64,000 nucleotides of DNA from Sulfolobales archaeon (GTDB taxonomy: Archaea; Thermoproteota; Thermoprotei_A; Sulfolobales; NBVN01): the NCBI GenBank assembly GCA_038844925.1, contig JAWBQY010000001.1, positions 224,361-288,360 on the forward strand. Direction: 5' to 3'. The notes under the pieces are model-generated. The model ran no database searches and was not told where the DNA came from. It saw nothing but the letters and a program-made list of their open reading frames with translations. Of this stretch, positions 5,425 to 61,438 are shown in pieces (the stretch's first letter is position 1; each line of letters opens with the position of its first letter). The position numbers and the translations under genes are program-made.

Positions 5425-5964
5425 ATCTTTAGAAGGAAGTCTGATAGTAGGTATGACCTTGTTAAATTACTGCATTATCTTAAACTATGTTATGGTAGGG
5501 TAAATTTCCTACTATCTAAGGTTACATCAAAGATCGAGGTATTAAATTCTAGGTTAAGCCGCTCCGAAGGTCCTGAAAGTAGTAAAACCTTAGTTAAGGA
5601 ATTAGAAAGTCTTAGAATGCTAGCTCGTTCACTAGCTAAGATGTCAGCCATCCTTGAGGTCCTCATCATCAGGGTTGAAACCCTAACACTTCTTAACCTT
5701 ACAGCTAAGGACCTAGCAGTAATTAAAAACGTGGTTCAAGAGCTGAAGAGATACTCATTCAACATCCCCGAGCTCTCAATAATTATTGAGGATATAGATG
5801 ATAAGGTCAACGACTTAATACATGATACTAAGGGAGGCTTCAGCGAATCAAGCATGAATATCGTAGTAAGTGATGATGCTAGGAAGATAATTAATGAGGC
5901 AGAATTAATTGCTGAATCAAAACTTAAGGATTTAACCAAGAATTTAAATACTGTTAAGATTTGA
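5425..5964 (+). CDS. ESCRT-III/CdvB-paralog-like coiled-coil protein; probable ATC start
   Basis: Frame is open from 5389; C-terminal VSDDARKIINEAELIAESKLK and ILEVLIIRVETL resemble crenarchaeal Snf7/CdvB proteins; first ATG (5617) truncates the helical N-terminus. Confidence 0.6.
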   Translation: MFRRKSDSRYDLVKLLHYLKLCYGRVNFLLSKVTSKIEVLNSRLSRSEGPESSKTLVKELESLRMLARSLAKMSAILEVLIIRVETLTLLNLTAKDLAVIKNVVQELKRYSFNIPELSIIIEDIDDKVNDLIHDTKGGFSESSMNIVVSDDARKIINEAELIAESKLKDLTKNLNTVKI

Positions 5965-6625
5965 CTACGTACTTACCGTCTGATATTCCCAGAAAGCCAT
6001 TCTCAACCAATAAGTTAACAGCATCTTTAAAGTAATCTAATCCAACATCAATGCCGTAGAACTCTTTAAACTTCATAATTATCTCCTCTAAAGTCCATTC
6101 CTTCTTACTCGAACTCTCCTCTAAGAGCATTCTCCTAATGAATTGGTAGGTATCCTCAAGCCTGGTCCACGGATACTGGAACCAGTACCATTCCTTAACC
6201 TCAATTAAGTAGAAGTCAGGTTTTAACTTAGCTACTGGTGAAATCCATTGAAGGGCAGCTATTTTAACGTCGTCAGGCCTCCATTCATTCACTATGAAAT
6301 TCTTAGCAAGTATTAAGGACTCGCCAGTATCAACTATATCATCAACTAATAATACCTTCATACCGCTTAAATCCACAGTATATTTAAACTTAATTAATGC
6401 TTTTTCAGCAACCTTAGCTGCTTCAGTCCAATGCTGGCTTTGAATCGACAGTAAGTTCTCAACATTTAGGAAGTCGCATAGAAGTCTTGCAGGCACGTAG
6501 CCACCTCTAGCTACAGCAACTATGACATCTGGCTTAAAGCCAGATGCCTTAACGATCTTGGAGAGCTCTCTCGACCACTCAACTATTTCATCCCATGAAA
6601 CTAATTTCACAGGGACTTTAACCAG
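5954..6625 (-). CDS. Purine phosphoribosyltransferase (HGXPRT-like); probable CTG start at 6625
   Basis: AVARGG, VLLVDDIVDTGES PRPP-binding motif, WFQYPW; upstream in-frame CTG-GTT-AAA-GTC-CCT-GTG. Confidence 0.88.
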   Translation of the reverse strand: MVKVPVKLVSWDEIVEWSRELSKIVKASGFKPDVIVAVARGGYVPARLLCDFLNVENLLSIQSQHWTEAAKVAEKALIKFKYTVDLSGMKVLLVDDIVDTGESLILAKNFIVNEWRPDDVKIAALQWISPVAKLKPDFYLIEVKEWYWFQYPWTRLEDTYQFIRRMLLEESSSKKEWTLEEIIMKFKEFYGIDVGLDYFKDAVNLLVENGFLGISDGKYVVKS

Positions 6626-6738
6626 GACAACCCCTTACTATTTAAACCTTTGGAGAATTCATAAATTTTACGATTAGAGCTAAGGAGCTTAGCTACATCT
6701 AACTTAGTGTGAAAGCGCCCCTGCAGGGGGTTAGGAGG

Positions 6739-7539
6739 CTAACCTGATGTAATTACCCCTCCCCTACTAATAAAGCTTGACATCAACTCCCTAACTACTT
6801 CGTCAGCTATTCCCTCAGCCTCCTCCTTAAGCTTACTTGAAACGCATACATATACTGATAATATCGGCTTTCCTAGTTCAGTACCCTTAGGTTGAGTCTT
6901 AATGTATACGTTTGAATACTTTTTAAGTAGCTTGTTTACTGATTCTGCTGCCGATGATTCTGGGAGGTTCCTCACCTCAAACTCACGTTCGGCTAGGAAT
7001 ATTTTAGGACCTCTAGCCATGAGTAGAGGTACTACGTATTCCTCAAACATAACTTCCATCTCCTTAGGAACTCCAGGCAATGAAATTACCATCCTATCAT
7101 CTACATCTACATGTATTCCAGGCGCTGTACCAACCCTATTAGGTATGGGTTTAGCGCCTTTAGGTAGCATAGCCATCTTTACCCTCTCTTGAGTTAGAGG
7201 TAGATTTAATGCAGCATATTTACTCTTAACCATCTCGAAGGCTTCCTGATTTAAATCCAATGGAAGTCCTAAGGCCTTAGCTAAAGCTTCTGAAGTCCTA
7301 TCATCATATGTAGGGCCTAAACCACCAGTAGTTATAATTACCTTAGAAGTGGGTAGGACGTACTTAATGAACTGAGATATTAGGTCTACGTCATCGACTA
7401 AGGAAATATTACCCAATACATCATAGCCGAGTAGGACTAAGCGCCTTCCGAGAAATGCTGAGTTAGTATTAATCACCCTACCATGAACTACTTCATTGCC
7501 TATGGTGAATATCCAAGCAGTGTAGTTACCCCCACCCAC
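6739..7539 (-). CDS. CinA-like / molybdopterin-binding domain protein
   Basis: IGNEVVHGRVINTNS, TTGGLGPTYDDRT, GTAPG, LPGVPKEM. Confidence 0.88.
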   Translation of the reverse strand: MGGGNYTAWIFTIGNEVVHGRVINTNSAFLGRRLVLLGYDVLGNISLVDDVDLISQFIKYVLPTSKVIITTGGLGPTYDDRTSEALAKALGLPLDLNQEAFEMVKSKYAALNLPLTQERVKMAMLPKGAKPIPNRVGTAPGIHVDVDDRMVISLPGVPKEMEVMFEEYVVPLLMARGPKIFLAEREFEVRNLPESSAAESVNKLLKKYSNVYIKTQPKGTELGKPILSVYVCVSSKLKEEAEGIADEVVRELMSSFISRGGVITSG

Positions 7540-8113
7540 TGCCTAACACCTTAATAACATGTACTACCCTCTGTATTATAGTTAACGTATTCAGTAGGAC
7601 CATAAGCAATAATAGATAATTACCTACTAAGACCCAGCCAGCCGACGCCACCACAGCAACTAATATCATTATAATAACCCTCTCACCTCTCTCTAAAATT
7701 CCAATACCCTCAAGCCTGATACCTAAGGACTCAGCCCTACACCTAATATAACTAACTAGTAGTGAGGTTGGAATAGCTACTAGGATTAAGTAAGCATTAA
7801 TGCCTAAGTAGTTAAAAGAGATTAAGTAGGATGTGTCTGAAACCCTGTCGCAGAATGAATCTATAAAAGCTCCTAAGGTAGTAGTCTTCGAAGTAGCCCG
7901 AGCTACAGCACCATCCAACCAATCAAGTACTGCGGAAATTACCATGAGCGTAGGTATTAGCCAGTAAACCCCTACAATACCTGAGGGTATGGTAGTTAAC
8001 GCCGTTAAAACGCCGAGAAGTGTTAGTAGGTTAGGTGATATACCATATTTTCCTAAGGCAGTACCCACCTTCAGACTTATAGGTAGTAACGCATCTCTAA
8101 ACCTACCTAACAT
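7526..8113 (-). CDS. CDP-alcohol phosphatidyltransferase (archaetidylinositol phosphate synthase-like)
   Basis: DWLDGAVAR...GAFIDSFCDRVSD signature; hydrophobic. Confidence 0.9.
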   Translation of the reverse strand: MLGRFRDALLPISLKVGTALGKYGISPNLLTLLGVLTALTTIPSGIVGVYWLIPTLMVISAVLDWLDGAVARATSKTTTLGAFIDSFCDRVSDTSYLISFNYLGINAYLILVAIPTSLLVSYIRCRAESLGIRLEGIGILERGERVIIMILVAVVASAGWVLVGNYLLLLMVLLNTLTIIQRVVHVIKVLGSGWG

Positions 8114-8629: not shown

Positions 8630-9122
8630 GACTACGGCTCAAAACTACTATAGTAGGAGGGTCTTAGTACCATACGTACCGACACCTGAGGTAGTAGTTG
8701 ATAAGATGCTTCAACTAGCTAACGTAAGTCCTGACGACGTTCTCTACGACCTTGGCAGCGGGGATGGTAGGATAGTAGTACAAGCGCTAACTAAGTACGG
8801 GGTTAAGAAGGCTGTAGGAGTTGAGATTAGGGATGACCTCGTTAAGATAGCACGGTCTAAAATTAATGAGTTAAACCTAGGTGATAGAGCTCAAATATAC
8901 CACGGAGATATGTTTGAGGTAGACATATCTGAAGCTACGGTAGTAACCCTCTTCCTACTAACCAGCGTTAATAACATGTTAAGACCTAAGCTTGAGAAGG
9001 AGTTAAGAAGTGGTTCTAGAGTAGTTTCACACGAATTTGAAATTCCTGGATGGATACCAGCTAAGATTGAAGTATGTAGTGATGGATATTTAAAGCATAA
9101 GATATACCTCTACAGAAGGTGA
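8622..9122 (+). CDS. SAM-dependent methyltransferase (protein lysine methyltransferase aKMT-like)
   Basis: VPYVPTPEVVV, YDLGSGDGRIV, ATVVTLFL, RVVSHEF. Confidence 0.85.
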   Translation: MVETTAQNYYSRRVLVPYVPTPEVVVDKMLQLANVSPDDVLYDLGSGDGRIVVQALTKYGVKKAVGVEIRDDLVKIARSKINELNLGDRAQIYHGDMFEVDISEATVVTLFLLTSVNNMLRPKLEKELRSGSRVVSHEFEIPGWIPAKIEVCSDGYLKHKIYLYRR

Positions 9123-9547
9123 TCTCCATAAGCACTAAGAAGACGTTAGTACTAAGTGTTGAAAGCGGTAACATAGTAAGTTCTAAGATAGTGGAGGATG
9201 AGTTAGAAGAAGTAGTTAAGAAAATCGTAGTGGAAGTCCTACCTAAGTGGTCTCCTAAAACTTCAGACCTAATCGCTATGAAATACGAACACGAAATAAC
9301 TCTAAGACTACCGCTAAGTAAGGAACTCTATGAGACCCTATCTAAGTACGGGTTGAGTAGGAAGTCATCATCGGAGGTCATAGCAAGACTACCAGTATAT
9401 GTCATTAGCTATGAGAACAGGTGGGTTGGAGAGGACTTAATAGATGAGAAGGTCTACGTAATCTCACCATATATAAATGATGAAATAAAAAATGATGTAG
9501 AACTACTTGCTATAGATTTAACATCTCCTGCTGAAGAGGAAGAATGA
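9119..9547 (+). CDS. Conserved archaeal protein (DUF2286-like); may start at ATA 9128
   Basis: W.P..SDLI and LPVYVISYEN motifs; operonic. Confidence 0.65.
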   Translation: MISISTKKTLVLSVESGNIVSSKIVEDELEEVVKKIVVEVLPKWSPKTSDLIAMKYEHEITLRLPLSKELYETLSKYGLSRKSSSEVIARLPVYVISYENRWVGEDLIDEKVYVISPYINDEIKNDVELLAIDLTSPAEEEE

Positions 9548-14448: not shown

Positions 14449-14769
14449 ATGTCTAAGAAGGGTAAGGCAGGTACTAGTAAGGAGTTACTAACACCTGCCG
14501 AAGGTGAGGTCATATGCGTAGTAACTGACGTCATCGGAGCTAACTACGTTAAGACTGTCTGCATGGATGGGGTGAGTAGGGTGTGTAGAATTCCTGGTAA
14601 GTTGAGGAAGAAGGTCTGGATAAACGTTAAGGATGTCGTCTTAGTAGCAGTATGGGAATTCCAAAACGATAAAGGAGATATCGTACACCGTTACGAGAGG
14701 GATGAACGTAAGAAGCTCATAGAACTCGGCCTACTTAGCAAGGATTTAATCGAAGGTGGTTCTGCATAA
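14449..14769 (+). CDS. Translation initiation factor aIF1A
   Basis: CMDGVSRVCRIPGKLRKKVWI, WEFQNDKGDIVHRY. Confidence 0.95.
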   Translation: MSKKGKAGTSKELLTPAEGEVICVVTDVIGANYVKTVCMDGVSRVCRIPGKLRKKVWINVKDVVLVAVWEFQNDKGDIVHRYERDERKKLIELGLLSKDLIEGGSA

Positions 14770-22287: not shown

Positions 22288-22288
22288 G

Positions 22289-22798
22289 GTGATATTACTG
22301 AGTTATAAAGTCCTCTGGGCTCCGTGGAGGATGAAGTACATAGCTAAGCATCATGAGAAAACCTGCATATTCTGCGATGCTAGGAATAAGCCTGACGATG
22401 AGTCGTATGTGATCTTCAGAAGCTCAACTTCCTTTGCAATACTTAACTTATATCCTTATAATACGGCGCATGTGATGGTAGCACCGTACAGACATGTCAA
22501 TAGTTTTGAACTACTAAGTGATGAGGAGTTATTAGACTTTATGAGACTTGTAAAGCTAGTACTTAAAGCTATAGATAATGAGTACAGACCGCATGGCTAT
22601 AACGTTGGGGCGAACTTAGGGCAGGTTGCCGGCGCTGGTGTTGAAGGACATTTACACCTACATATAGTGCCTCGATGGTTGGGTGATACCAACTTCATGC
22701 CCTTAATAGCTAATGTAAAGGTAATACCTGAGGATATAAGGGATACGTACTCTAGGTTAAAAAAAGCAGTTAACGTCGTCTTTAAACAGTTACAGTAA
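22289..22798 (+). CDS. HIT-family nucleotide hydrolase; may start at CTG 22298
   Basis: LWAPWRMKYI, CIFC, NLYPYN, HLHLHIVPRW. Confidence 0.92.
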   Translation: MILLSYKVLWAPWRMKYIAKHHEKTCIFCDARNKPDDESYVIFRSSTSFAILNLYPYNTAHVMVAPYRHVNSFELLSDEELLDFMRLVKLVLKAIDNEYRPHGYNVGANLGQVAGAGVEGHLHLHIVPRWLGDTNFMPLIANVKVIPEDIRDTYSRLKKAVNVVFKQLQ

Positions 22799-40162: not shown

Positions 40163-40379
40163 CCGTTAACACCAACAAGTAGTGATAATAGATGGTTTTA
40201 AAGTTAGCACTTAAACACGTATTTAGAAGTTATTAGTTATAAGGTATATCACATCTGAAGTGGGAAGTAATTACTATTAGAGAATACGGCTTATGAGGCT
40301 GGAGGCGGCTGCATAAAAATCATCAGATACTAAAGATTAAAAATACCGAAGTAAAAAACATAAGGAGAGGTGTGTAGCT

Positions 40380-40658
40380 ACGCCTAAGAAGAGGGAGAGT
40401 AGGGGCAGACATAAAGGTGGGAAAGGATCTGTTGGTGCTATACATTGCGATCAGTGTGGGAGGTTAACCCCTGAGGATAAAGCAGTATGCGTTACTAGGA
40501 CTTACTCACCAGTAGACCCACAACTAGCTAATGAGTTAGAGAAGAAAGGTGCTATAATTGCTAAATACCCCATCACTAAATGCTATTGTATTAGTTGTGC
40601 AATATTTTTAGGTATAATTAAAGTTAGATCTGAGGATGAAAGGAAGGTCGTCAGGTAA
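40380..40658 (+). CDS. rps26e: Ribosomal protein S26e, starting at ACG (missed by the ORF track)
   Basis: (M)PKKRESRGRHKGGKG...CDQCGR.TPEDKA...YCISCAIFLGIIKVRS; SD GAGGTG 7 nt upstream. Confidence 0.93.
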   Translation, partial: TPKKRESRGRHKGGKGSVGAIHCDQCGRLTPEDKAVCVTRTYSPVDPQLANELEKKGAIIAKYPITKCYCISCAIFLGIIKVRSEDERKVVR

Positions 40659-40673
40659 TTAGGTGGGGGTATA

Positions 40674-40961
40674 ATGCGCATACCAAAGAAGTTAAATAGC
40701 TACTGCCCTAGATGTAAGACCCACACAGAACACAGTGTTACTATATACAAGCACGGTAAGCGTAGGTCCTTAGCTGAAGGTGAGAGAAGGTATGCACGTA
40801 AGCAGAAAGGCTATGGTAGTAAGAGGAAGCCCGAGCAGAAGAGATTTGCAAAAGTTACTAAGAAAGTAGTTCTTAAGCTTAAGTGTTCGAAGTGTGGCTA
40901 TATAATTCATAGGAAGGGTATTAGGATTAAGAAGGCTGAGTTAGTTGAGGTGGTGAAGTAG
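40674..40961 (+). CDS. rpl44e: Ribosomal protein L44e
   Basis: [37 protein letters not shown]. Confidence 0.96.
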
Positions 40962-41159
40962 GTGAAGAAGAAGAAAGTACTAATACCTATGCCTAGGTCT
41001 AAGTTTGTGAAGATTAGATGTCCGTCATGCGGTAATGAGCAAGTAGTATTCGACCACGCAACATTTCCCTCAAGATGTTTAGTATGTGGGGTGGTTCTCG
41101 TAGTACCTTCAGGCGGTAAGGCTAAGGTATTGGGTGAGTTAATAAAGATTATGAGTTGA
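40962..41159 (+). CDS. rps27e: Ribosomal protein S27e
   Basis: [20 protein letters not shown]...CLVCG...PSGGKA. Confidence 0.96.
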
Positions 41160-41160
41160 T

Positions 41161-41967
41161 GTGATGGTAAGGAAGCGTACTGAACTACCTGAGGTAGGGG
41201 ATTTAGTAATAGGAACGGTTACTAAAACATTTGAATATGGTGCCTACGTCCGTTTAGAAGAATTCGGAGGTCATGAGGCTTACCTACCTTGGAGTGAGGT
41301 AAGTAGTAAGTGGGTTAGAGATGTTAAGGAGTTCGTTAAGGAGGGTCAGAAGGTGGTAGCTAAGGTCATCCGAGTTGATAGGAAGAAGAAACATGTTGAT
41401 ATATCGCTTAAGAGGGTTAGTGATAGCGAGCAAAGGCGAAAACTACTTGAGTGGAAGAGGGCTCAGAGAGCTGAGAAAATACTTGAAGTTGTTGCATCAA
41501 GGTTAGGTAAAACATTAGACGATGCTTACAGGGAGGTTGGGTGGAAGTTAGAAGATAAGTATGGGGAAATATTCGGGGGCTTAGAACTTACTGCATATCA
41601 AGGTGAGGAGGTACTCAGGGAGGCTGGGGTTCCTGAGGAGTGGGTAGGCCCCATAATGGATGAGTTGAAGAAGCATATAGAGGTGAAGAAAGTTAAAATA
41701 CATGGGCTGCTGACATTAACTTCAACAGACCCTGACGGGGTGGAGAGGATTAGAGAGGTACTTCTAAAACCACTTAATGCATTAAGCAGTGAATTAGATA
41801 GAAATACATCAATTAAGGTCTATACTATAGGCGCTCCTAGATATAGGGTTGAGGTTATATCAGCTGATTATAAACAAGCTGAGAAAATCTTAAACACTTA
41901 CATATCTATAGCACAGGATATAGCTAAAACGCTTAACGTTAACTACAGCTTTGAGAGAGAACGTTAA
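41161..41967 (+). CDS. Translation initiation factor aIF2 alpha
   Basis: LPEVGDLVIGTV S1 domain, IDISLKRV-like motif, IGAPRYR. Confidence 0.95.
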   Translation: MMVRKRTELPEVGDLVIGTVTKTFEYGAYVRLEEFGGHEAYLPWSEVSSKWVRDVKEFVKEGQKVVAKVIRVDRKKKHVDISLKRVSDSEQRRKLLEWKRAQRAEKILEVVASRLGKTLDDAYREVGWKLEDKYGEIFGGLELTAYQGEEVLREAGVPEEWVGPIMDELKKHIEVKKVKIHGLLTLTSTDPDGVERIREVLLKPLNALSSELDRNTSIKVYTIGAPRYRVEVISADYKQAEKILNTYISIAQDIAKTLNVNYSFERER

Positions 41968-42125
41968 TGCGTTGGCTACTACGTAAGTGCCCTAAATGCG
42001 GGCTTTACACTTTTCAGGAATTCTGCCCTAAATGCAATGGAAAGACCCACGTTGCACACCCACCTAGATTCTCACCAACAGATAGATACGTAAGGTATAG
42101 ACTAATACTTAAAAACGAATTTTAA
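41967..42125 (+). CDS. nop10: H/ACA RNP protein Nop10 (below the ORF-track cutoff)
   Basis: MRWLLRKCPKCGLYTFQEFCPKCNGKTHVAHPPRFSPTDRYVRYR. Confidence 0.93.
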   Translation: MRWLLRKCPKCGLYTFQEFCPKCNGKTHVAHPPRFSPTDRYVRYRLILKNEF

Positions 42126-42126
42126 A

Positions 42127-42690
42127 TCACCAAGGCACGTCCTTAATCCCGAAAAGATATGCTATAAAATTAGTTAATGGATGGAGTATTAAAGATACTA
42201 CCATAGCTATAAGTAGGGACTGCAGGTCTAACGAAGTACTTAGCAGTAAATCCACACCAGACAACCTTATAATGAGGAACGAACCAAGTAGGTAGTCTAT
42301 CTGGTCGAAGGGTGGGAACGGTGCCCCTCCCCGCATCCCCAACCTTCGTTTAACGAACGCGTTAATTAGATCGCCTAGTAAAGCCCCTAAACTCATGAAG
42401 AAGGCGTATAAGACCCATAAACCATTCCCGAAAATATAGACGTATCCAAGACCTAATAGTAAACTCCCTGATAGGCCTAGTACGAACCCCTCCCAAGTCT
42501 TCCCATCACCTAAAACCCTCCTACCATCGATGAAGTTTTTATTAAAGTCTATAGGATGTCTATTTCGGAAGAACACTCTTACAAGCACCGGCAACGCGTT
42601 AGCAACCATTGCAGGCAGGAAGAGGATCAATGCCCGCACCACCATTACTACAGCTCCATCAAGATTCATACGCCAACCACTCAACACCAT
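42127..42690 (-). CDS. carS: CDP-archaeol synthase (DUF46)
   Basis: PAMVANALP, HPIDF, DGRRVLGDGKTWEG, GDLINAFVKRR, DQID. Confidence 0.9.
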   Translation of the reverse strand: MVLSGWRMNLDGAVVMVVRALILFLPAMVANALPVLVRVFFRNRHPIDFNKNFIDGRRVLGDGKTWEGFVLGLSGSLLLGLGYVYIFGNGLWVLYAFFMSLGALLGDLINAFVKRRLGMRGGAPFPPFDQIDYLLGSFLIIRLSGVDLLLSTSLDLQSLLIAMVVSLILHPLTNFIAYLFGIKDVPW

Positions 42691-43288
42691 TACTAGTAAT
42701 TACATATCTCATCTCTAAATTAGCTTCTTTAGGAAATTCAGTAAGTAGCCTTCTCACGTTCCTCCCAACTTTCTCAAGCTTGAATACGTAATCACACCAG
42801 TACCTAAGTATTTGAAAACCACTCATTCTGACGTCATCGTCGAAACCGCTTACCTGAGCTGCAAGCAAACACGTAGTACCGTTATTAACACTCATATCGT
42901 TCAGTAAGGCCAATATCGTGTTGAAGACCCTGTTTGAGTGAGGCTCGTAGCTAACCTCAACTCTATAGAAATTATTCACGGTATCTATAGCTATTGCCTT
43001 TAAATCCTTCCTCAAATTCTTATAGACGTCAAGTACTAGTTGAAGTAAGCTATTGCTGTCGTATACGTCTATAAATAGAGCATTTTCTGAAAATCCGTAT
43101 CTGTCTAGAATGGCTGAGTATAAAGGTCCTTCAGTACTCACATATACGACCTTCCCACACGAAGTAATTGAAATAAGACTTAAGAATTGCAGTATTATGT
43201 TTGTTTTACCAGCTCCTGCCTCACCGTATATTAGTGAGACCTTACCTTCAACCAGCTTAAGAAGTTCGTCAACCTTAATACCCACCAC
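42659..43288 (-). CDS. RadB-like RecA-family ATPase
   Basis: YGEAGAGKT, YVSTEG, IAIDTV. Confidence 0.75.
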   Translation of the reverse strand: MVGIKVDELLKLVEGKVSLIYGEAGAGKTNIILQFLSLISITSCGKVVYVSTEGPLYSAILDRYGFSENALFIDVYDSNSLLQLVLDVYKNLRKDLKAIAIDTVNNFYRVEVSYEPHSNRVFNTILALLNDMSVNNGTTCLLAAQVSGFDDDVRMSGFQILRYWCDYVFKLEKVGRNVRRLLTEFPKEANLEMRYVITSNGVEWLAYES

Positions 43289-43365
43289 CTTATATAGGGA
43301 GGACCGTGCTGGAGACTCAATAAAACTTTATTATTAAACGCTTAAATAACTATCATGGTGGTTGC

Positions 43366-44055
43366 ATAGTCAGACGTCGCGGGAAGGAAGTAGAAGTAGC
43401 TGCATTCATATACAATCCTAGACTACTCATAAGTGTGTTGAATGCTGTGAAAAATTATGGTATAAAGATTTTCGTACCTGAAGATATTAACTCCCTTAAG
43501 AACTACCGAGATGTGCTACTAGTAGATGATGAAGGTTTAGACATACTGAGAACTCGCTTAGGTATTAACCCAGTAAATCACTACTTAATTCATGATGACG
43601 CTTCAATATACAGATTTATAGTTAAGGTCTTCGGCATTAAAGATGTTAGAGTTCTTCAGGTCGGGATGGACGTTGGTAGAAGGCTTGCCTACGTAATCCT
43701 CTGCGATAATATACTCCTCAAGGCAGGGTATATATCAAGACTTAAAGACCTAATAGAAACTGTCGAAGAGTTTAGGAAAATCTTAACGCCAAGTAAGGTC
43801 GTCATAAAGTTGGGTAGTTCAGCAGGCACTAATAATCAGAAGATCAACATGTTTGTGAGGGAGTTAATCCTATCAGGATTTGAGGTCGTAGTAGCAGATG
43901 AGAGTAACTCATCATCTAAGACATGGAATAAATTAGACGGTTATAAAATTAAGTTTACGACAGACATACATGCAGCTTTAAACATAGCATTTAGGGAGGG
44001 GGTTAAATTCAGTAAAGCGCAACAGAATTTAACACGTGATTCGGCGGACTATTGA
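43366..44055 (+). CDS. Hypothetical protein with an RNase H-like (YqgF-like) C-terminal domain; probable ATA start
   Basis: VGMDVG, VADESNSS, DIHAALNIA; frame open upstream of GTG 43435 to ATA 43366 after GGTGG. Confidence 0.6.
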   Translation: MVRRRGKEVEVAAFIYNPRLLISVLNAVKNYGIKIFVPEDINSLKNYRDVLLVDDEGLDILRTRLGINPVNHYLIHDDASIYRFIVKVFGIKDVRVLQVGMDVGRRLAYVILCDNILLKAGYISRLKDLIETVEEFRKILTPSKVVIKLGSSAGTNNQKINMFVRELILSGFEVVVADESNSSSKTWNKLDGYKIKFTTDIHAALNIAFREGVKFSKAQQNLTRDSADY

Positions 44056-44871
44056 ATATATGTTTAATAGTGTTTCAACATCTAATTGGTAGACCCTCTT
44101 ACCTTCGGTTAAACTCTCTAACTTTAAGACGTCCTCACCACTTAAGCTACCTCTTAAGCAATTCCTCAATACCTTTCTAGCTAGCTTTCTCTTCTGATTA
44201 AACAAACACCTAATTAAGTCTTCATACACTCTCCACTCATCACTCCACTCTCTAATCCTCATTAAAACTACTACCCTGGAATACACTTTAGGACGTGGTG
44301 TGAAGGATGAAGGAGGGTAAAGTCCCCCTAATTCTACATTCATAAATGTATTGACCATAGCCGTCAGCCTACTGTAGCCCTTACTACCAGGTAGTGCTGT
44401 AAGGCGTTCAGCAACCTCGTTCTGAAGTGTGAGTACCGCCGCCCTACAATTAGACTTAACGATAGAGTTAATTAACGGACCAGTAATACTATACGGTACG
44501 TTAGATACTATTATGTCCGCCTCCCTCAACCCGGAATGAAGTAGGAGAAGTCCGTCGCCGACTAAGACATCAACTACTCTAAAACCTACCTCCCTATTTA
44601 AGAAATCCACAGCTACACCGGCCAACTTACTGTCCAACTCTACTGATACTACGTAATTAGCTACATCGCTTAAGCAAGCAGTAAGTAATCCCAAACCTGT
44701 ACCGATCTCTACCACCCTAGACGGTCTTAACTTAGAGACATGTTCTAAGACCTCGTAGAGCAGCTTCCTATCCACTATAAAATGCTGACTTAACTTCCTC
44801 CTCGCTCTAACACCGTGTAGGCGTAGTAAGTACTTCGTAATCTTATCTAAATCTAGATAACGTAATTCCAT
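44029..44871 (-). CDS. ksgA: 16S rRNA m6,2A dimethyltransferase
   Basis: LSQHF, EIGTGLGLLT, VSNVPYSIT, QNEVAERL, FTPRPKVYS. Confidence 0.93.
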   Translation of the reverse strand: MELRYLDLDKITKYLLRLHGVRARRKLSQHFIVDRKLLYEVLEHVSKLRPSRVVEIGTGLGLLTACLSDVANYVVSVELDSKLAGVAVDFLNREVGFRVVDVLVGDGLLLLHSGLREADIIVSNVPYSITGPLINSIVKSNCRAAVLTLQNEVAERLTALPGSKGYSRLTAMVNTFMNVELGGLYPPSSFTPRPKVYSRVVVLMRIREWSDEWRVYEDLIRCLFNQKRKLARKVLRNCLRGSLSGEDVLKLESLTEGKRVYQLDVETLLNIYSIVRRITC

Positions 44872-44959
44872 AGACGGTGACCACTTTACCCATATCTTAA
44901 ATTGTAAAAAGTAATCAAGGTTTATTAGTTCTTTAGGTATTTATATCATTGATCAAGGA

Positions 44960-45622
44960 TTGAGTGCTGAGGAAAGAGTTTTAAGTTATTTGAGAGTCAA
45001 TCCCGGAGCAACTCCTAGGGAGATAGCTGATGCGTTAGGTATGAGTCTAACATCGGTTAGAATAGCTATAAATAGGCTTAGAGAGTTGGGACAGGTTATT
45101 AGGAGTAGTAGGGGTGGTTACGTTGTTAGGGTATCCCAAGACGCTGTGTTTAATGACTACGTTCATAGTACTACTCAACATCCGGTCAGCAAAGATTTAC
45201 TGAAAATTATAGATGAATTAGTCAGTAAGGTTAGTAGTTTAGAGAGTAGGATTGAGAGGTTAGAAAGTGAGGTCAGACTTATTAAGAAGTCATTACCTAA
45301 GATGCCTACGAAGCGCTCAGCTAGTGGGGATGTGGATAAGTTTCTCTCAACGCTGAGGTTAAGAGGAGTTATGAGTGTTGATGAAGTCAGAGGGTTATCA
45401 CTTGAGAGACCTTTAGATGACTACGTAAGTAGTGGGAAGGTCGTCATTGTAGGGGATCTGGTAGTATGTCCTGACTTCCTAAACTCATTTAAGTCTAAAT
45501 TCCCCATTAAGGTATCTGATATTAATAGCCTGAGTAGTGAGGAGGTAAAGCTTTTAGAAGCTTTAGTTAGGACTAATCAAGTATATCTATTCTCAGGTGT
45601 TGAGTATAGGATCTTAGATTAA
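44960..45622 (+). CDS. HTH DNA-binding protein with coiled coil
   Basis: NPGATPREIADALG HTH followed by the LESRIERLESEV heptads. Confidence 0.75.
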   Translation: MSAEERVLSYLRVNPGATPREIADALGMSLTSVRIAINRLRELGQVIRSSRGGYVVRVSQDAVFNDYVHSTTQHPVSKDLLKIIDELVSKVSSLESRIERLESEVRLIKKSLPKMPTKRSASGDVDKFLSTLRLRGVMSVDEVRGLSLERPLDDYVSSGKVVIVGDLVVCPDFLNSFKSKFPIKVSDINSLSSEEVKLLEALVRTNQVYLFSGVEYRILD

Positions 45623-46401
45623 ATCCTCCCGGAAAGTACATCTACGATTAATTTAGTCAGTCTATCCATAATAGAATTAACAAGTCTAACCCCCTTCTCA
45701 TAATTAGCCTTATCTGGATTTCCATAACTTCCTGGAAGTCTCTTAAAGCCTTCAAACCTATAAACATATGCCTTAGGTCTTTTAGTAAGGTCTAGACTAT
45801 GCCAGAAATCATCATATCTTCTATCAACTTCAGAACCTACAGCCCTCTCACTAACTACTCTAATGTTTAAAGCTATTGCAATACTCGTTTCAATCTCATC
45901 TGCGTGGAAGAACTTACTCTCAAATACTTCATTAATCACATCACCTACTAACTCCCACCAAGAGGTTACTATCACAAGAGAGTCCCCACCTACATCGTTA
46001 ACAACTCTTCTAGCAACTACCTTTAACGCGTCGGAGTTGCCGGCATGTCCGTTGAGTATTAAAACCTTCTTAATACCACACCTCATGATAGACTTAATTA
46101 AGTCATATAGATAATTCATGAAGGAAGCCTCACTAACTTCTAACGTCCCGGGATTACCTGACCACATGCTACTTAATCCGTAGGGTATTGGAGGAAGCTT
46201 AATTACCTTAATCCCTGAGCTACGCACTCTTTCCACGAACCTCTTAGCTAACTCATCAACTATTAAGTAATCAAGACCTAATGGTAAGTGCAAACCATGT
46301 TGTTCGATACTACCAACTGGTAGTAATGCTATGGTAGAATCGTCAACAGTTTCCTCAAACTCAACCCACGTGATTAAGTCCCAGAAAGACATTAAACCCA
46401 C
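45619..46401 (-). CDS. Creatininase-family amidohydrolase
   Basis: PVGSIEQHGLHLP, NGHAGN, HADEIETS. Confidence 0.9.
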   Translation of the reverse strand: MGLMSFWDLITWVEFEETVDDSTIALLPVGSIEQHGLHLPLGLDYLIVDELAKRFVERVRSSGIKVIKLPPIPYGLSSMWSGNPGTLEVSEASFMNYLYDLIKSIMRCGIKKVLILNGHAGNSDALKVVARRVVNDVGGDSLVIVTSWWELVGDVINEVFESKFFHADEIETSIAIALNIRVVSERAVGSEVDRRYDDFWHSLDLTKRPKAYVYRFEGFKRLPGSYGNPDKANYEKGVRLVNSIMDRLTKLIVDVLSGRI

Positions 46402-46413
46402 TACGTTGGAGGC

Positions 46414-47727
46414 TTATTCTAACGCTTTTAATATGTCGGGAGGTACTTTAAAAGTATATTTAACCTCGGTGAACTCCTTCCTAAACTCTATGACCTTCCT
46501 CTTAACCTCGGTAGGGTCTTTACGGTTGATGAGTAAGTCTCTCATAATGATTGCGATTTCCTTGAAATCCGATTCCACAGCCCCATATCTAGTCATTTCC
46601 TGAGTGCCTAATCTTATACCGCTTGGATTCTTAACAGCTTCAGGAGGGTCCCACGGAAGTAAGTTCTTATTAACTATTATGTTAGCTGATTCAAGTTCTT
46701 GAGCCACTTTAGAGCCACCACCTAAGTCCGTAACATCAACTACTAACATGTGTGATTTAGTAAACCCTAAGTTCTCTGCAAGTACTTTAAAGCCTTCAGA
46801 ACATAAGGCCTCTGCGAAAGCTCTAGCATTTCTAACTACTTGATCTGCGTACGACTCACCAAAGTACTTCATCTCAATTGCTGTTACAGCTGTAGCTGGC
46901 AGTCTATGTAAGTGATGATTGCTTACAAACCACGGAAATATGACCCTAGACACCGCCTTATACAACTCACCATCATTAGTGAAGATTAAACCTCCCTGAG
47001 GTCCTGGAAACGTCTTATGAGTCGATGATGTAGCTATATCAGCTCCCTCATGGATTGGGTTAGGCCACTTCTTACCGACTATTAATCCAAGAACATGGGC
47101 TACGTCGTGAACTACGTATGCGCCAACCTCATGTGCTGCCTCAGCAATTTCCTTATTCGGATGTGGAAATAAGTAAACGCTAGCACCTAATGTTACGAAC
47201 TTAGGCCTTAAATCACTAATCATCTTAATAGCTTTATCAACATCTATATTCCACGAGTCTGTATCGAAAGGCATCTCAACATGCTCTATGCCTAAAGCAC
47301 CTAAAGTACCGAACTTAGTATGCGATACGTGGGCGCCTGCCTGAACAGGTGCTATTAAAGCCTTATCCCCAGGATTACCGAGAACTCTAAACACAGTAGC
47401 ATTAGCTATAGTACCACTTATAGCTCTAGGCTCTACGTAATTAACATTAAGTAGCTCGCCAAACAACTTAGAAACCATCTCCTCAACAATGTCCACATAC
47501 TTAGTCCCCTGGTAATATCTCTTACCGGGTCTCCCCTCAGCATATCTATGCATCATATCACTAAGGTAGACAGACTCCGCCAACGGAGACATAACGTTCT
47601 CAGATGCAATTAAGTTAATACACTCAAACTTCCTCCATCTGTTATGACTTCCAACAACATTAATTAGATACACCAACTCATTAGGTACGTTAATACCCAC
47701 CACCCAACCCTTCAAACTAACTCTCAA
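46414..47727 (-). CDS. glyA: Serine hydroxymethyltransferase
   Basis: [38 protein letters not shown]. Confidence 0.96.
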
Positions 47728-47936
47728 AACAATTTATATTTTACCTCTACCTACTATCCAAGCCGACATTGAGAAATGCTTACCGTGTTAGAATGTATTC
47801 ATAGTTGGAAATCAGTATTGATGTGTTAGCAACTACTTCTTAGCCTCAAGTTTTTTAGGTTATCTTAGATTCCTTAACTCTTATAAAGTAATTAAGCAGT
47901 TTCCAAAACCCTTGAATGTGGTGTGTCGGTCGGTAA

Positions 47937-47995
47937 CCAGGGTTCTGAAAACCTGCAGTAGTCCGCGGGAAGGTTCGGAGAGGTAGGTAAACTAC
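47937..47995 (+). repeat. Dispersed ~60-bp repeat, copy 2
   Basis: CCAGGGTTCTGAAAACCTGCAGTAGTCCGCGGGAAGGTTCGGAGAGGTAG...AACTAC, homologous to 33704-33763. Confidence 0.7.
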
Positions 47996-48037
47996 ATTAA
48001 GAAGAACGAAAACCTAAGTGGAGAACGTTACTCCAAC

Positions 48038-49792
48038 CTAGATAAATCCTATCATAGACATTGTGATCATTAATACGGTCAGTGTTAGCAGTACCGCTAT
48101 TATTGAATGTGTAAACCCTGCAGCTAATACCATCCTCGATAACTTACCAGCTACTATTCCAGTAATATATGAATTAATTAAAGCTCCGATAGATAGAGTT
48201 GCGATAATCCCTGTAAGCATTTCTGGTTGCGTTCTTAAGCCGGCAGACATAGTTAACTGCCACACAATTATTAGAGGAGCGGATGAGATCATTATGATGC
48301 CGAAATATGGTAAGAGTACGTAAGCCCTTAAACTACGTCTTAACTCTATTTCGGAGTCTGACAACCCTTGAGCGAAGATAGCTAATGCCTCAATGATTTC
48401 AGGACTTCCACCACCATATAGTACAGAATCTACTAAAAACCTGAATACTATTGCGATAAACCAGTCTCTTAACCTCCTCATACTCCTAGCTAATGCCTTA
48501 TCTAAGGTGATACCCATTGATATTGCAGTAGCCGCCCTCTTCACAATAGTTGTTAAATTGCCATAACTCCTTTGAGATAGAGTTACGATGCACTTCTCAG
48601 GACTTAACCCAGTCTTCCTAACCTCACTTAAATCTCTTAAAAATTCAGCCAAAGACTTAGACACACCCCTAGTCCCTCTAGACTCTAATGTGTAAACTAA
48701 TGAGGGAGGAATTGAGACTGTTAGAAGACCCACACCTAAGGAAATCACTAGAACGACGACATCCCAAGGCCTAAGAACTCCTTTAAAAATGTGTAGCGAG
48801 CCACCTATCACTATTACCGACGCCATGGCAAGTACTGCAAAGGGTATGGAAATCAATAACGTGTAATACGGCGACCTAATTGGTAACTCAGTTTTGGGAA
48901 GAGTAACATGTACTAAAATCAATATTATAGCACTTAAAGCTGGTAATACAATATTAACATATAGTATGGGCATCGAGAGGTCCGCTATAGAACTAAATCT
49001 GGGACCACCGGTAATTGACATTGCACCACCTGCTGCGTAAAAGGTAAATACTGTTATTAAAACCACAACTCCAAGTATGATGTATAATTCCATAAATGCT
49101 GTTAATCTCTCAATCACTGCCTTCACATCAGCAGATCGACTGTCTAAGAGCTCTTTTGTCTTAACCTCGAGGTAGTGGGATACGTCACCACCACTCCTTA
49201 ACGTAGTTACGTAGCCTAACATTAAGTCTCTAAACTTAGTGCTTGGATGATCGTAAGCAACCTTCTCAATAGCAGATAACGGATCTGCTCCAAACATTTT
49301 CACAAGTCTTAGGATTTCACTAGCTTCCCTCCTCATGTATTTGAAGAGTTTTAACCTAGAGACCCTTTCCAAGCATTTCTCAACAGTGAGGCCTCCTTTA
49401 ACCATAGTTGTTACGTATACGGAGAAGAAAGGTAATTCAGACTCTACGTACAACTTTCTGAAGAAAGCACTTAACGAAGGGTAGATAAGTCCTATAGCAA
49501 ATGCTATAATACATGATATTACCGGTGTTAGTAAAAGTAAGAGTTTAACAAGTAGAGCGAATTGTAATACCATTACTAATATACCGACAACTATTAAGGA
49601 AATAATACCGCTTAATAAAGTGATGAGGAGTACCCTACATGCATAAACCTTCGGATGTATGTAGAGTCCAGCTATTTTAAGACTTTTATCTAATTCGAAC
49701 GTCTTAGCTATAGTTGGGGATACCCTCTCAAATAGTGTTAACGCAATGGCATCAAAATATACTATTAATGCTGAAGTGAGTTTTTTACTCAC
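48038..49792 (-). CDS. Type IV pilus platform membrane protein (TadC/AapF/UpsF-like)
   Basis: Two T2SSF-like domains (ELPFFSVYV; FLRDLSEVRKTGLSPEK) and many TM helices. Confidence 0.85.
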   Translation of the reverse strand: MSKKLTSALIVYFDAIALTLFERVSPTIAKTFELDKSLKIAGLYIHPKVYACRVLLITLLSGIISLIVVGILVMVLQFALLVKLLLLLTPVISCIIAFAIGLIYPSLSAFFRKLYVESELPFFSVYVTTMVKGGLTVEKCLERVSRLKLFKYMRREASEILRLVKMFGADPLSAIEKVAYDHPSTKFRDLMLGYVTTLRSGGDVSHYLEVKTKELLDSRSADVKAVIERLTAFMELYIILGVVVLITVFTFYAAGGAMSITGGPRFSSIADLSMPILYVNIVLPALSAIILILVHVTLPKTELPIRSPYYTLLISIPFAVLAMASVIVIGGSLHIFKGVLRPWDVVVLVISLGVGLLTVSIPPSLVYTLESRGTRGVSKSLAEFLRDLSEVRKTGLSPEKCIVTLSQRSYGNLTTIVKRAATAISMGITLDKALARSMRRLRDWFIAIVFRFLVDSVLYGGGSPEIIEALAIFAQGLSDSEIELRRSLRAYVLLPYFGIIMISSAPLIIVWQLTMSAGLRTQPEMLTGIIATLSIGALINSYITGIVAGKLSRMVLAAGFTHSIIAVLLTLTVLMITMSMIGFI

Positions 49793-56047: not shown

Positions 56048-58324
<2,277 letters not shown>

Positions 58325-58412: not shown

Positions 58413-58691
58413 TTACTTGATATCAGTTCTAGTAACTAATTCAGATTCAACACTTTCAACACCGTCTAAACCTCTTATAATGTTTTCAATCTCCTCAGTA
58501 CCACCCTCAACATCCTCAGGCATTAGTAGGTAAAGCCTGAGGACATGTAATCCGAACGCTACGTATACCTTCTCACTCTTAACTAATTCGTACTTAGCAG
58601 GCAACACCTTCCTCAAATCGCTAAGCACGCCATCTAAGTTTACATCAATATCCTTAGGGTATACCTTAAGAACAGCTAATATCTTAGCCAT
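58413..58691 (-). CDS. Elongation factor 1-beta
   Basis: KVYP, VAFGL, GGTEEIE. Confidence 0.92.
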   Translation of the reverse strand: MAKILAVLKVYPKDIDVNLDGVLSDLRKVLPAKYELVKSEKVYVAFGLHVLRLYLLMPEDVEGGTEEIENIIRGLDGVESVESELVTRTDIK

Positions 58692-58702
58692 AGTGCATCA
58701 CC

Positions 58703-58924: not shown

Positions 58925-59042
58925 TGTTAACCAGTACTACTATACAGTAGTTGAGTTTAAAAATATGATATCCTAATCCTACAGTAAAGTATGTTTTAAG
59001 ATGTTTATAAGCTCTTAAACAATATCACCGACGGAATCTGCA

Positions 59043-60095
59043 GTGGGGGTTGATTTAAGAGAGCTAATACCTGATAAGGCTGTTAGAACTATTAACGATT
59101 TAAGAGAGCTTTATGGAAAGGTCATAGCCATAGACGCTTATAACGCGCTCTACCAATTCCTAACAGCTATTAGGCAGCCTGATGGAACCCCGTTAATGGA
59201 TTTAAAGGGTAGGGTGACAAGCCATTTAAGCGGCCTCTTCTACAGAACCGTAAATCTCATGGAGGCGTGCATAAAGCCTATATACGTATTTGACGGTAAA
59301 CCACCCGAGTTAAAGTCTAGGGAAATAGCTCAGAGGTCTTTAATAAAGAATGAAGCATTAATTAAGTATAAGGACGCATTAGAACGTGGTGATATTGAAA
59401 CCGCCCGTAGGTATGCTCAAATTTCCTCTAAGCTGACCAATGAAATGGTGGAGGAAGCAAAGGAATTACTAAGCGCTATGGGTGTTCCATGGGTTCAAGC
59501 ACCTTCGGAGGGTGAGGCACAAGCTGCCTACATGACTTTAAAGAATGTGTCATGGTCTACAGCAAGTCAGGACTACGACTCAATACTCTTCGGGTCTCCT
59601 AGACTTATAAGGAATCTAACAATTTCAGGCAAACGTAAGTTACCCAAGAAGGATATTTACGTAGAGGTTAAACCAGAGCTCATAGAGCTTAACACGTTAT
59701 TGAGTTCCTTAGCCATAACCAGGGAGCAGTTAATAGACATAGCCATACTGCTGGGTACTGACTACAATCCCGATGGGGTTAAGGGTATCGGCCCTAAAAC
59801 AGCTTTAAAACTTATTAAGACTTACGGCTCCTTAGAGAAAGTACTTAAAATCCTGCCTGAAGCTCAATTCCCAGTAGATCCGCTTAAGATTAGGGAGTTC
59901 TTCCTAAACCCTCCAGTAAGTAATGAATATAAGGTTGAGTGGGTTGAACCCGATGAGAAGCGGGTTAAGGAGTTACTAGTAGTACAACATGATTTCTCGG
60001 ACGAGAGGGTATTACCAGCATTAGAGAGGTTGAGGAAGGCGTTTAGAGAGTGTATTAAGTCTAAGGTTAGGGGTCTCGACGCATGGATTAAGTAA
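59043..60095 (+). CDS. fen: Flap endonuclease 1
   Basis: DAYNALYQFL, TSHLSG, EGEAQ, SQDYD, GTDYN, GIGPKTA, C-terminal LDAW. Confidence 0.97.
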   Translation: MGVDLRELIPDKAVRTINDLRELYGKVIAIDAYNALYQFLTAIRQPDGTPLMDLKGRVTSHLSGLFYRTVNLMEACIKPIYVFDGKPPELKSREIAQRSLIKNEALIKYKDALERGDIETARRYAQISSKLTNEMVEEAKELLSAMGVPWVQAPSEGEAQAAYMTLKNVSWSTASQDYDSILFGSPRLIRNLTISGKRKLPKKDIYVEVKPELIELNTLLSSLAITREQLIDIAILLGTDYNPDGVKGIGPKTALKLIKTYGSLEKVLKILPEAQFPVDPLKIREFFLNPPVSNEYKVEWVEPDEKRVKELLVVQHDFSDERVLPALERLRKAFRECIKSKVRGLDAWIK

Positions 60096-60098
60096 GCT

Positions 60099-60785
60099 TC
60101 AACATATCTCAGCCTCCTCTATTATTAGATAGCCCGTCCAGTAGTTAGGATACCATACCTTCCTACTAGACTTTATGCATATCCTCCTCCCTTGGAAGAG
60201 TGGTGATGAAGTAACAAATGTTTCGAACTCACCTCCCTCACCAACTAAGTTTACATTATACTTCCTACACATAGCTATGAAGTCCTCCACATTACTTAAG
60301 TCTATCTTACTGCCTAACCACTTAACATCTAATCCGTAAGCCTGCAAGGCGGTGATTACAAACTCTGTAGTTCTTAATTCCTCAAACAGTAAGGTATAGG
60401 GGTCGTAACCCCAAAGAGGTGTTATGTGCGTTAGACCTAACTCACTACATAGCCTATCCACTACTGATTTCTGATAGTTAGATGCTACAACACCGCTGAC
60501 TACATACTTAAATCCGTACCGTCGTAGTTCCTCAAGCTTTCCCCTCAACTCACCTACTTCAACATCTCTAATACCACTACAACTCATTAAATCATAGTCA
60601 ATACCTAATAACTTGCCGTGTAGGGCACTCCAACTAATATTCACAGTGTGGAATAACCAAGAATCAGTTCTTGATGGAATAGCTATGAGTAATTTTTCCA
60701 CGTTATAACCTTGACTCAGAGCTTTAACTAATGCGTAGTGTGAGTCCTTCCCCCCGCTGTATAAGACTAGGGTTTTCTCACCTAT
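60099..60785 (-). CDS. Diphthine--ammonia ligase (Dph6-like PP-loop ATPase); non-canonical ATA/ACG start
   Basis: VLYSGGKDSHYAL lies upstream of the ORF-track GTG (60701); SNYQK, PLW, GEGGEFETFV. Confidence 0.88.
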   Translation of the reverse strand: MGEKTLVLYSGGKDSHYALVKALSQGYNVEKLLIAIPSRTDSWLFHTVNISWSALHGKLLGIDYDLMSCSGIRDVEVGELRGKLEELRRYGFKYVVSGVVASNYQKSVVDRLCSELGLTHITPLWGYDPYTLLFEELRTTEFVITALQAYGLDVKWLGSKIDLSNVEDFIAMCRKYNVNLVGEGGEFETFVTSSPLFQGRRICIKSSRKVWYPNYWTGYLIIEEAEIC

Positions 60786-61438
60786 CGTAAAGCACCTCTT
60801 AACACGTCTAGAGCAGCCTCAACTACATACATTAAGCAATTCATATCCCCCCTCCTACAAATAGAAGCTAGAATGCAATCACCATCAACGACCTTAAAAC
60901 TGCTTAGCATATTCTTCCAGAACTCTTGATTAGTAATTTCATATAGGCCGTAGGAATCAGGTAGTTTAAAGCTTCCCTCAATATAGTACAATATCAAGCC
61001 GCCGACACCACCTTTCTTAACTATTAAATCCCTAACGTATAGTACACCGCCAACCTCCTCAACTAATTTGACCCCATTCTTAAGAAGGACTACTGATATC
61101 CTACAGTCCCTACATAATTCTATATCGCTGAAATCGAAGCTACCAACCATAAGAACGTTGTTTTTCAACAACTCAAGTACTTCAAAGCCCTTCTCGGTTA
61201 GTAAGACCCCTGCTACTGGATCAACAGCTATTAACCCAACATTGTAGAGCCTCCGAACTAAAGTCCTCACACTACCTTCACCTATGCCTAAGATATTAGA
61301 AAGGGTTTTCCTCCCCAAAGGGGTTTTAGCACACTCATTTAAGGTCAGATATACGTGGTAGCTAGTAAAACCGGGTCTGACGTTACCCTTAGGTAAGACT
61401 ACCTCATCAACGATGTTGAAGACTTCCTTAATATTCAT
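60782..61438 (-). CDS. wHTH-domain protein (DUF4443/DUF2111-like)
   Basis: PLGRKTLSNILGIGEGSVRTL, RDLIVKKGG. Confidence 0.75.
   Translation of the reverse strand: MNIKEVFNIVDEVVLPKGNVRPGFTSYHVYLTLNECAKTPLGRKTLSNILGIGEGSVRTLVRRLYNVGLIAVDPVAGVLLTEKGFEVLELLKNNVLMVGSFDFSDIELCRDCRISVVLLKNGVKLVEEVGGVLYVRDLIVKKGGVGGLILYYIEGSFKLPDSYGLYEITNQEFWKNMLSSFKVVDGDCILASICRRGDMNCLMYVVEAALDVLRGALR

Follow-up and report, generated by a model that had tools for sequence, protein, structure and literature searches.

Several genes of a Sulfolobales archaeon appear to be translated from codons that differ from ATG by one base and are not among the three starts usually considered. We identified these genes in a 64,000-nucleotide stretch of the genome (hereafter the window; positions 224361-288360 of contig C1 in G000, a 1.40-Mb assembly of 33 contigs that is ~90% complete). 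Comparison with related genomes, together with genome-wide statistics, suggests that these near-cognate starts (ACG, AUA, CUG and AUC/AUU), each directed by an upstream Shine-Dalgarno (SD) motif, are real, a reading to which we assign a probability of about 0.8. The same comparisons point to a habit that is order-wide and not the defect of a single genome. Throughout, ATG, GTG and TTG are referred to as canonical starts, while near-cognate denotes any codon one base from ATG.

A preliminary description of the window, made from the sequence alone, had listed nine near-cognate starts and ascribed them to SD-directed initiation. Each of the nine codons is present as described, together with the motif before it, and Pfam matches (Ribosomal_S26e, Diphthami_syn_2, Pribosyltran, DUF2286, RIO1, HIT and CDC48/AAA) confirm most of the gene labels. 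Based on our alignments, six of the nine are firmly supported as putative starts, namely rps26e ACG 40380, dph6 ATA 60785, rio1 ATA 14766, ATA 43366 of an open reading frame (ORF), PRTase CTG 6625 and HIT CTG 22298 (Table 1). ATC 5425 is well supported as a candidate start, ATA 9128 of DUF2286 is ambiguous, and ACG 58282 of cdc48 did not hold up. The window thus carries near-cognate starts in 6-8 of its about 60 genes and is richer in them than the genome average.

Proposed near-cognate starts in the window

The genomes used for comparison comprise four sister species of the same genus as G000 (G001, G002, G003 and G004), one species of another genus (G010), and G034, a single-contig genome from a different family (f11) of the same order, of which the first 800 kb were used. 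The sampling of G001 covered 86% of its genome. In rps26e, dph6, rio1, PRTase, HIT and others, the proposed codon is one base from ATG and lies at the column of the orthologues' start codon; sister species either keep the near-cognate codon or swap it with ATG, GTG or TTG at that column, often with a stop codon just upstream. Locating starts by the onset of tblastn homology within the genus was dropped, as non-coding and overlapping DNA is too alike among these species.

The gene for ribosomal protein eS26, rps26e, was claimed to lack any canonical route to its conserved N-terminus, and indeed none of the 105 codons of its frame (40341-40658) is ATG, GTG or TTG. Position 2 of the Pfam S26e profile aligns with residue 2 of eS26, which places ACG 40380 at the position of Met1. 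This column reads ACG in four species of the genus (G000, G001, G002 and G004) and in G010, and ATA in G003; elsewhere among the 29 parsed loci (one of 30 was unparsed) it is canonical, in 23 cases (ATG 13, TTG 7, GTG 3). Across the phylum it is canonical at all 27 parsed loci, two of 29 being unparsed. The GAGGTG motif before the start is kept at a spacing of 6-7 nt in 6/6 genomes.

This gene also illustrates the consequences for annotation. In a collection of 5.8 billion proteins, the best match to the eS26 of the window is only 90% identical, though the sister genomes encode copies that are 95-98% identical to it, and the eS26 gene apparently goes uncalled in this genus. No eS26 entry of the genus, or of the window's own protein, was found in that collection. 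ACG is absent from the start codons of translation table 11; the longest ORF then listed in the eS26 frame begins at ATA 40440 and encodes 72 instead of 92 amino acids, cutting 20 residues from the protein. The expectation that gene callers would miss or truncate such genes is thus borne out for rps26e.

For dph6, two alternative starts had been offered, ATA 60785 and ACG 60788. The ATA is kept in four of the five species of the genus (G000, G001, G002 and G004), while the codon that precedes it is ACG, TCG, GAC or TAA, the TAA of G004 being a stop directly 5' of the ATA. The ACG at 60788 was rejected as a start, given that the sisters carry TCG, GAC or the TAA stop at its column. A GAGGTG motif (60793-60798) lies 7 nt upstream of the ATA, whose frame has its first canonical codon only 28 codons further on, past the SGGKDS motif. 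The claim that no canonical start can yield the conserved N-terminus of this protein therefore stands, with ATA 60785 as the putative start. In two other genera the gene has ATT (g5) or CTG (g3) after a stop.

The gene upstream of rio1 is aIF1A, as identified by its Pfam match to eIF-1a. By eye, ATA is found within one codon of the rio1 start column at 18 of the 24 readable loci of the family, the remainder being TTG (3), GTG (1), ATT (1) and GTA (1). In genus g5 the ATA directly follows a TGA stop. A CTG preceded by a stop is found in G034 and in two genomes of family f4, and ATG occurs only in two loci of one family. An AGGTG motif lies 7 nt upstream of the ATA in 4/4 genomes, and the column of the downstream ATG 14802 varies (M/T/I/E/K/R/Q).

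In G003, GTA takes the place of the genus ATA at both dph6 (locus L050) and rio1 (L083), and at both it overlaps the upstream stop (GTAG and GTAA). No further start-like codon is present between the stop and the SGGKDS motif of the G003 dph6, and GTA may act as a start there despite its two mismatches to AUG. As a general start, GTA showed no enrichment behind SD sites in either G001 (9/249) or G034 (2/103).

ORF 43366, for which no Pfam family was found, has ATA in 6/6 genomes while the residues that follow it vary. Its first canonical codon is 23 codons downstream, GGTGG lies 4 nt upstream of the ATA, and G010 has TAA directly 5' of it. At the PRTase column, read at 30 loci, CTG occurs six times (four in genus g1 and two in g5), alongside TTG (5), ATG (13) and GTG (6), and stops are found 3-4 codons upstream in both g1 and g5. 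The HIT column reads CTG, CTG, ATG, TTG and ACG in five species, with an upstream TGA at a distance of two codons in G001 and of three codons in G002 and G004. A stop directly 5' of the codon in at least one relative thus fixes the start of dph6, rio1 and ORF 43366, and at HIT relatives do so with stops at a distance of two to three codons. For dph6, rio1, ORF 43366 and PRTase, a canonical start is excluded by such stops together with homology that extends past the first canonical codon on its upstream side.

No Pfam family was found for the 179-aa protein labelled ESCRT-III-like, whose proposed start is ATC 5425. The column reads ATC at five and ATT at three of eight close loci; G010 has a TAA four codons upstream, no canonical codon follows for 64 codons, and more distant orthologues have a GTG start one codon upstream. 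A conserved ATGAGGGT at 5411-5418 (+), upstream of the ATC, is out of frame in G000, G001, G003 and G004. At its place in relatives (L211, L213 and L214), ATG is in frame in genus g5 and TTG in G002, such that a one-base difference in the spacer toggles between an ATG start and an ATC/ATT start.

Table 1. Coordinates of the start codons and of the rps26e SD motif, numbered from the first nucleotide of the window
Feature	Position	Strand	Remark
rps26e ACG start	40380..40382	+	gene 40380-40658, eS26; putative start
GAGGTG SD motif	40367..40372	+	7 nt before the rps26e ACG
dph6 ATA start	60783..60785	-	diphthamide synthase; putative start, overlaps the TAG stop of the upstream gene (ATAG)
rio1 ATA start	14766..14768	+	putative start, overlaps the TAA stop of aIF1A (ATAA)
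ORF 43366 ATA start	43366..43368	+	putative start of a conserved 229-aa ORF
PRTase CTG start	6623..6625	-	phosphoribosyltransferase; putative start
HIT-family CTG start	22298..22300	+	HIT gene; putative start
ATC start	5425..5427	+	candidate start of a 179-aa protein labelled ESCRT-III-like
DUF2286 ATA	9128..9130	+	possible start, ambiguous versus GTG 9119
cdc48 GTG	58292..58294	-	likely true start, kept in 4/4 genomes

Association of near-cognate codons with SD sites

We tested, for each gene, the codons in frame that follow the upstream stop and precede the first canonical codon, leaving out those at most two codons from a canonical codon, and counted a codon as SD-linked under the strict criterion of GGTG at -13 to -8; two shifted frames served as control. 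Before first-ATG starts, GGTG begins at -15 to -8 with peaks at -11 and -9 and is present in 177/660 genes. The sites in the window that carry GAGGTG, AGGTG or GGTGG 4-7 nt upstream have this same spacing.

Among all non-canonical codons of G000, ACG ranks first and CTG second in their link to SD sites (ACG 11/80, p=3e-7; CTG 10/76, p=1e-6; other codons 120/6805), with ATA (11/283, p=0.02) and ATT (10/269, p=0.03) giving weak signals. In the shifted frames of G000, the counts are 0/98 and 0/63 for ACG, and 5/110 and 0/61 for CTG; across G000, G001 and G034 they amount to 0-2 for ACG and 0-5 for CTG per about 60-110 codons. The signal recurs in G001 (ACG 13/94, p=3e-8; CTG 5/119, p=0.07) and in G034 (ACG 7/27, p=3e-10; CTG 6/72, p=6e-6; other codons 26/4808). 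The pattern exceeds chance and is frame-specific for ACG and CTG. The proposal that near-cognate codons are enriched at SD spacing genome-wide is thus upheld for ACG and CTG, in frame only, is weakly supported for ATA and ATT, and fails for ATC.

Over the 800 kb of G034 that were used, GTG has little association with SD sites (4/162), compared with 72/386 for ATG, 38/218 for TTG and 7/34 for ACG in the same count. ACG seems to be commoner than GTG as an SD-led start in this genome.

Conservation between species and the share of genes concerned

An evolutionary comparison was made using 1034 reciprocal-best gene pairs between G000 and G001, whose median identity is 76%. SD-led canonical starts in G000 (n=172) are also canonical in G001 in 147 cases, most of the others being one-codon shifts; clean swaps in G001 to CTG (after TAA) and to ACG also occur among them. 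SD-led near-cognate candidates in G000 number 41. Ten of these with ACG could be aligned, from which we removed two that are trailed at once by a canonical codon. The remaining eight read ACG (4), ATG or GTG (3) and TCG (1, the rejected ACG of dph6) in G001, with no synonymous Thr codon among them. The 1953 ACG codons in gene interiors behave differently, with 27% the same or canonical and 45% synonymous (p=6e-4 versus the candidates).

An estimate free of the SD criterion was obtained from 372 usable gene pairs between G000 and G034, by determining how far homology reaches upstream of the first canonical codon. It does so by at least four codons in 31 genes of G000 and 17 of G034, and by at least eight codons in 18 of the 372 G000 genes, 8 of which have an SD-led near-cognate codon that is rightly placed. 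Control genes, in which an SD precedes the first canonical codon itself, extend upstream in 1/28 cases at the four-codon threshold and in 0/28 at the eight-codon threshold. Some of the 31 extensions are due to chance or lack an explanation, and several have no start-like codon whatsoever, a_595 and a_970 among them. We estimate that near-cognate starts serve roughly 2-8% of genes (8/372 to 31/372). The preliminary description, which called the phenomenon pervasive, therefore overstated it, considering also that its cdc48 start was wrong and its DUF2286 start is ambiguous.

At a_595 (C2:+127280) and a_970 (C2:-125405), the stretch homologous to G034 starts immediately behind an in-frame stop, with neither a canonical nor a near-cognate codon available. 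Split genes, breaks in the assembly or a different type of start could account for them.

Evidence against near-cognate starts and alternative explanations

A number of our results weigh against near-cognate initiation, either at particular codons or at particular genes. In the comparison of G000 with G001, the retention of the same or a canonical codon was not significant for CTG, ATA or ATT; for CTG, only the lack of synonymous codons stands out (0/7, p=0.012), and as the test for ATA is not significant, the case for this codon comes from individual genes. ATC is not enriched behind SD sites across G000 (2/109), and the SD motifs of PRTase and of the ATC gene are imperfect (AAGGGGT and GAGGGT, respectively). 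The ATC gene has an in-frame ATG or TTG five codons upstream in genus g5 and G002, and HIT, in G000 only, has an in-frame GTG (22289) inside its SD, 9 nt upstream of the CTG, that is a possible start. In DUF2286, an in-frame GTG at 9119, located in an SD-like motif and overlapping the upstream TGA, is kept in 8/8 genomes read and can explain the gene. The GTA codons at the dph6 and rio1 columns of G003 are two bases off AUG and are not predicted by a strict one-mismatch model. Moreover, both the identity of the N-terminal amino acid and that of the decoding tRNA are inferred, and the 3' end of 16S rRNA was not found in the G000 assembly, so that the anti-SD sequence is assumed.

Several of these points would follow if the genes started at a nearby canonical codon, whether a GTG contained in the SD-like motif or one of the three canonical codons further downstream, with the upstream similarity being non-coding. 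cdc48 is a true case: ACG 58282 is rejected as its start, being ACA, a synonymous Thr codon, in 3/3 sister genomes, and GTG 58294 is kept. Such a start is also possible for HIT in G000, and for DUF2286, whose ATA is ambiguous because GTG 9119 is conserved; the DUF2286 column itself reads ATA, ACG, GTG, ATG and ACG in the five species of the genus. The upstream in-frame ATG or TTG that the ATC gene has in g5 and G002 fits this explanation as well. As a general account, however, it is very unlikely. The rps26e frame offers no canonical codon, a downstream start would deprive dph6 of its SGGKDS motif, and the 12 codons before ATG 14802 of rio1 are conserved, unlike the column of that ATG. For HIT, dph6, rio1, ORF 43366 and PRTase, relatives carry stops that rule out a start further upstream; at HIT, it is by such stops or by a different frame that relatives rule out the position of GTG 22289. 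Finally, in 18-31 of 372 genes the homology to G034 extends beyond the first canonical codon on its 5' side.

It is virtually negligible, in our assessment, that the codons stem from assembly or sequencing errors or from decaying pseudogenes, for all that the assembly is fragmented and incomplete. The same codons recur in four to five separately assembled species and in another genus, which rules out consensus errors, a check that the preliminary description had itself proposed. The window's DNA is also present in hot-spring metagenome runs, and contigs from the runs of other studies carry the same DNA: DNA contigs of X8 (another study) and of X3, which may be this DNA's own source, span 40300-48087 with 8 and 2 differences, respectively, and none is listed at 40380-40382. 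Downstream codons change synonymously with the protein kept, and eS26 is a core ribosomal protein. RNA editing that restores AUG, by C-to-U conversion at ACG or A-to-I conversion at the third base of AUA, would make initiation canonical in the mRNA, and ACG-to-AUG editing of start codons is known in plant organelles, where the genomic ACG likewise lies at Met1. Editing of these kinds cannot make AUG from CUG or AUC, which occupy like sites in the window, and CTG is as enriched as ACG behind SD sites. ACG, ATA, CTG and canonical codons interchange at one column, which suggests one mechanism. None of the pieces listed from the one RNA run, a metatranscriptome (X15) that contains a relative about 95% identical, spans 40380, and C>T at 40381 is not among the differences listed. 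We consider editing highly improbable.

The starts could also be used without the initiator tRNA acting in its usual way, either by a 70S ribosome that terminates on the upstream gene and restarts at the overlapping codon with laxer codon requirements, or with an elongator tRNA, which would place Thr, Ile or Leu at the N-terminus. Four starts in the window have the required arrangement, in that rio1 and dph6 overlap the upstream stop by four bases and HIT and DUF2286 have the stop inside the SD. The occurrence of GTA in G003 at exactly the two overlapping sites also fits a stop-constrained start tolerated in coupling. By contrast, rps26e, ORF 43366, PRTase and the ATC gene follow 100-200 nt of intergenic DNA and have no upstream gene to couple to. 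Furthermore, the codons used are single-base neighbours of AUG and not random, as expected for pairing with CAU. Therefore we regard this possibility as unlikely, and favour near-cognate initiation directed by the SD.

Breadth of the trait and the initiation machinery

The preliminary description regarded relaxed start selection as special to this lineage and suggested that aIF1, aIF1A or the initiator tRNA might be altered. Neither suggestion is supported by our results. The ACG and CTG signal is present in G034, of another family, and the weak start of rio1 spans families. Since that family shares the signal, no change of the machinery particular to the genus is needed to explain it, and the initiator tRNA, aIF1 and aIF1A look ordinary. 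The gene for the initiator tRNA, at 10913 of C14 (-), is 196 nt long and encodes A1..U72 and an ordinary CTCATA anticodon loop, i.e., a CAU anticodon; only one initiator-like tRNA gene was found per genome. aIF1 (C4:532-867) aligns to the solved archaeal aIF1 4mo0 with E=4.5e-22, conserved blocks included, and aIF1A gives a normal Pfam match.

Three apparent introns interrupt this tRNA gene, an arrangement shared by G001 and G034. Neither aragorn nor the Rfam tRNA model detected it in G000, and it was found only with a pattern derived from the G034 gene.

Two sources describe SD-led archaeal initiation as a process in which the complex is brought into position by the SD, triplets are then probed in the P site by the initiator tRNA, and complexes formed on codons other than AUG are destabilised by aIF1 (PMC6237735, PMC8211752). 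We propose that in the genes studied here a GGUG-type SD would pair with the 3' end of 16S rRNA and bring into the P site the codon that lies 4-7 nt downstream, where ordinary Met-tRNAi (CAU), which we infer to be the tRNA used, would be accepted with two of three base pairs. A terminating ribosome may assist at the four starts that abut a stop. Such starts would be expected to be weak, and sensitive to aIF1, which rejects non-AUG complexes.

It is conceivable, though doubtful, that these weak starts are selected and not just tolerated. They might form a 'stringency-sensing' class that tracks aIF1 activity and is centred on translation genes (eS26, Rio1 behind aIF1A, and Dph6). We base this speculation on rio1, which keeps a weak codon across families. 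Escherichia coli offers a parallel in infC, the gene for IF3, which is autoregulated by IF3. Here, as in infC, a weak SD-led start on a translation-related gene could tie expression to the stringency of initiation. The discriminating factor differs, being IF3 in E. coli, while in archaea it would be aIF1. Both infC and pcnB of E. coli start with AUU, according to a study on Deinococcus (PMC2830850).

Relation to known systems and implications

Near-cognate starts are already known in bacteria, and what we propose here is their conserved use for main ORFs in an archaeal order. In Deinococcus, dnaA starts with ATC, rpsL with CTG and infC with ATA, as reported by Baudet et al. 2009 (PMC2830850). 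As in our study, core genes including one for a ribosomal protein are involved, the near-cognate codons are conserved and were found by aligning related loci, and the annotation was corrected (PMC2830850). The two cases differ in that Deinococcus is a bacterium in which only four genes are concerned, the proof is mass-spectrometric, and ACG was not among the codons searched (PMC2830850). In the archaeal order studied here, tens of genes per genome would be involved and ACG is prominent, and the evidence is comparative and statistical.

Eukaryotic initiation at CUG, ACG and other near-cognate codons is restrained by eIF1 (PMC4705826, PMC6237735). The codon classes are the same as in our genomes and the factors are homologous (aIF1/eIF1, aIF1A, aIF2 and Met-tRNAi with A1:U72); however, eukaryotes rely on scanning and Kozak context, whereas in our genomes the position is set by an SD located 4-7 nt before the codon. 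Within the archaea, ribosome profiling of Haloferax volcanii placed about 30% of putative alternative initiation sites at near-cognate codons, which the authors set aside to limit false positives (Gelsinger et al. 2020, PMC7261190). Those are alternative sites, whereas the codons proposed here would be conserved and the only starts of their main ORFs, in a thermophile that uses SD motifs.

A 2020 review of archaeal initiation names only AUG, GUG and UUG as starts in its accessible text (PMC7531240). We found no description of ACG, AUA or CUG as main-ORF starts in archaea in the literature outside paywalled papers and supplements, and the full-text literature on ACG start codons in archaea yielded only one paper, which is unrelated.

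If our reading is true, automated calls throughout an order of Thermoproteota would lose or shorten a few percent of the genes, which could distort inferred gene content and protein families. With respect to mechanism, it would mean that SD-led archaeal initiation tolerates mismatches that aIF1 is thought to reject. Were the same to be true of other archaeal phyla, a few percent of archaeal proteomes would be mis-called and a regulatory layer overlooked.

Additional observations

An ORF at 42659-43288 (-), divergent from ORF 43366, has a possible ATT start at 43277-43279. At this site the sequences of G002 and G003 run from a stop through GGT GGT to ACT ATC (G002) or ATT ATT (G003), with no canonical codon; where these two species have GGT GGT, G000 reads GTG GTG.

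The start column of a 92-aa ORF at 58691 (-) reads ATG in G000 and G002, TTG in G004 and ACG in G001, with AGGTGA, GAGGTG or GGTGA before each. Outside the window, the 124-codon gene a_1225 (C1:19956, +) has CTG right after a TAA stop, behind TAGGGT, and its orthologue in G034 has ATT at the same column, behind GAGGTGG.

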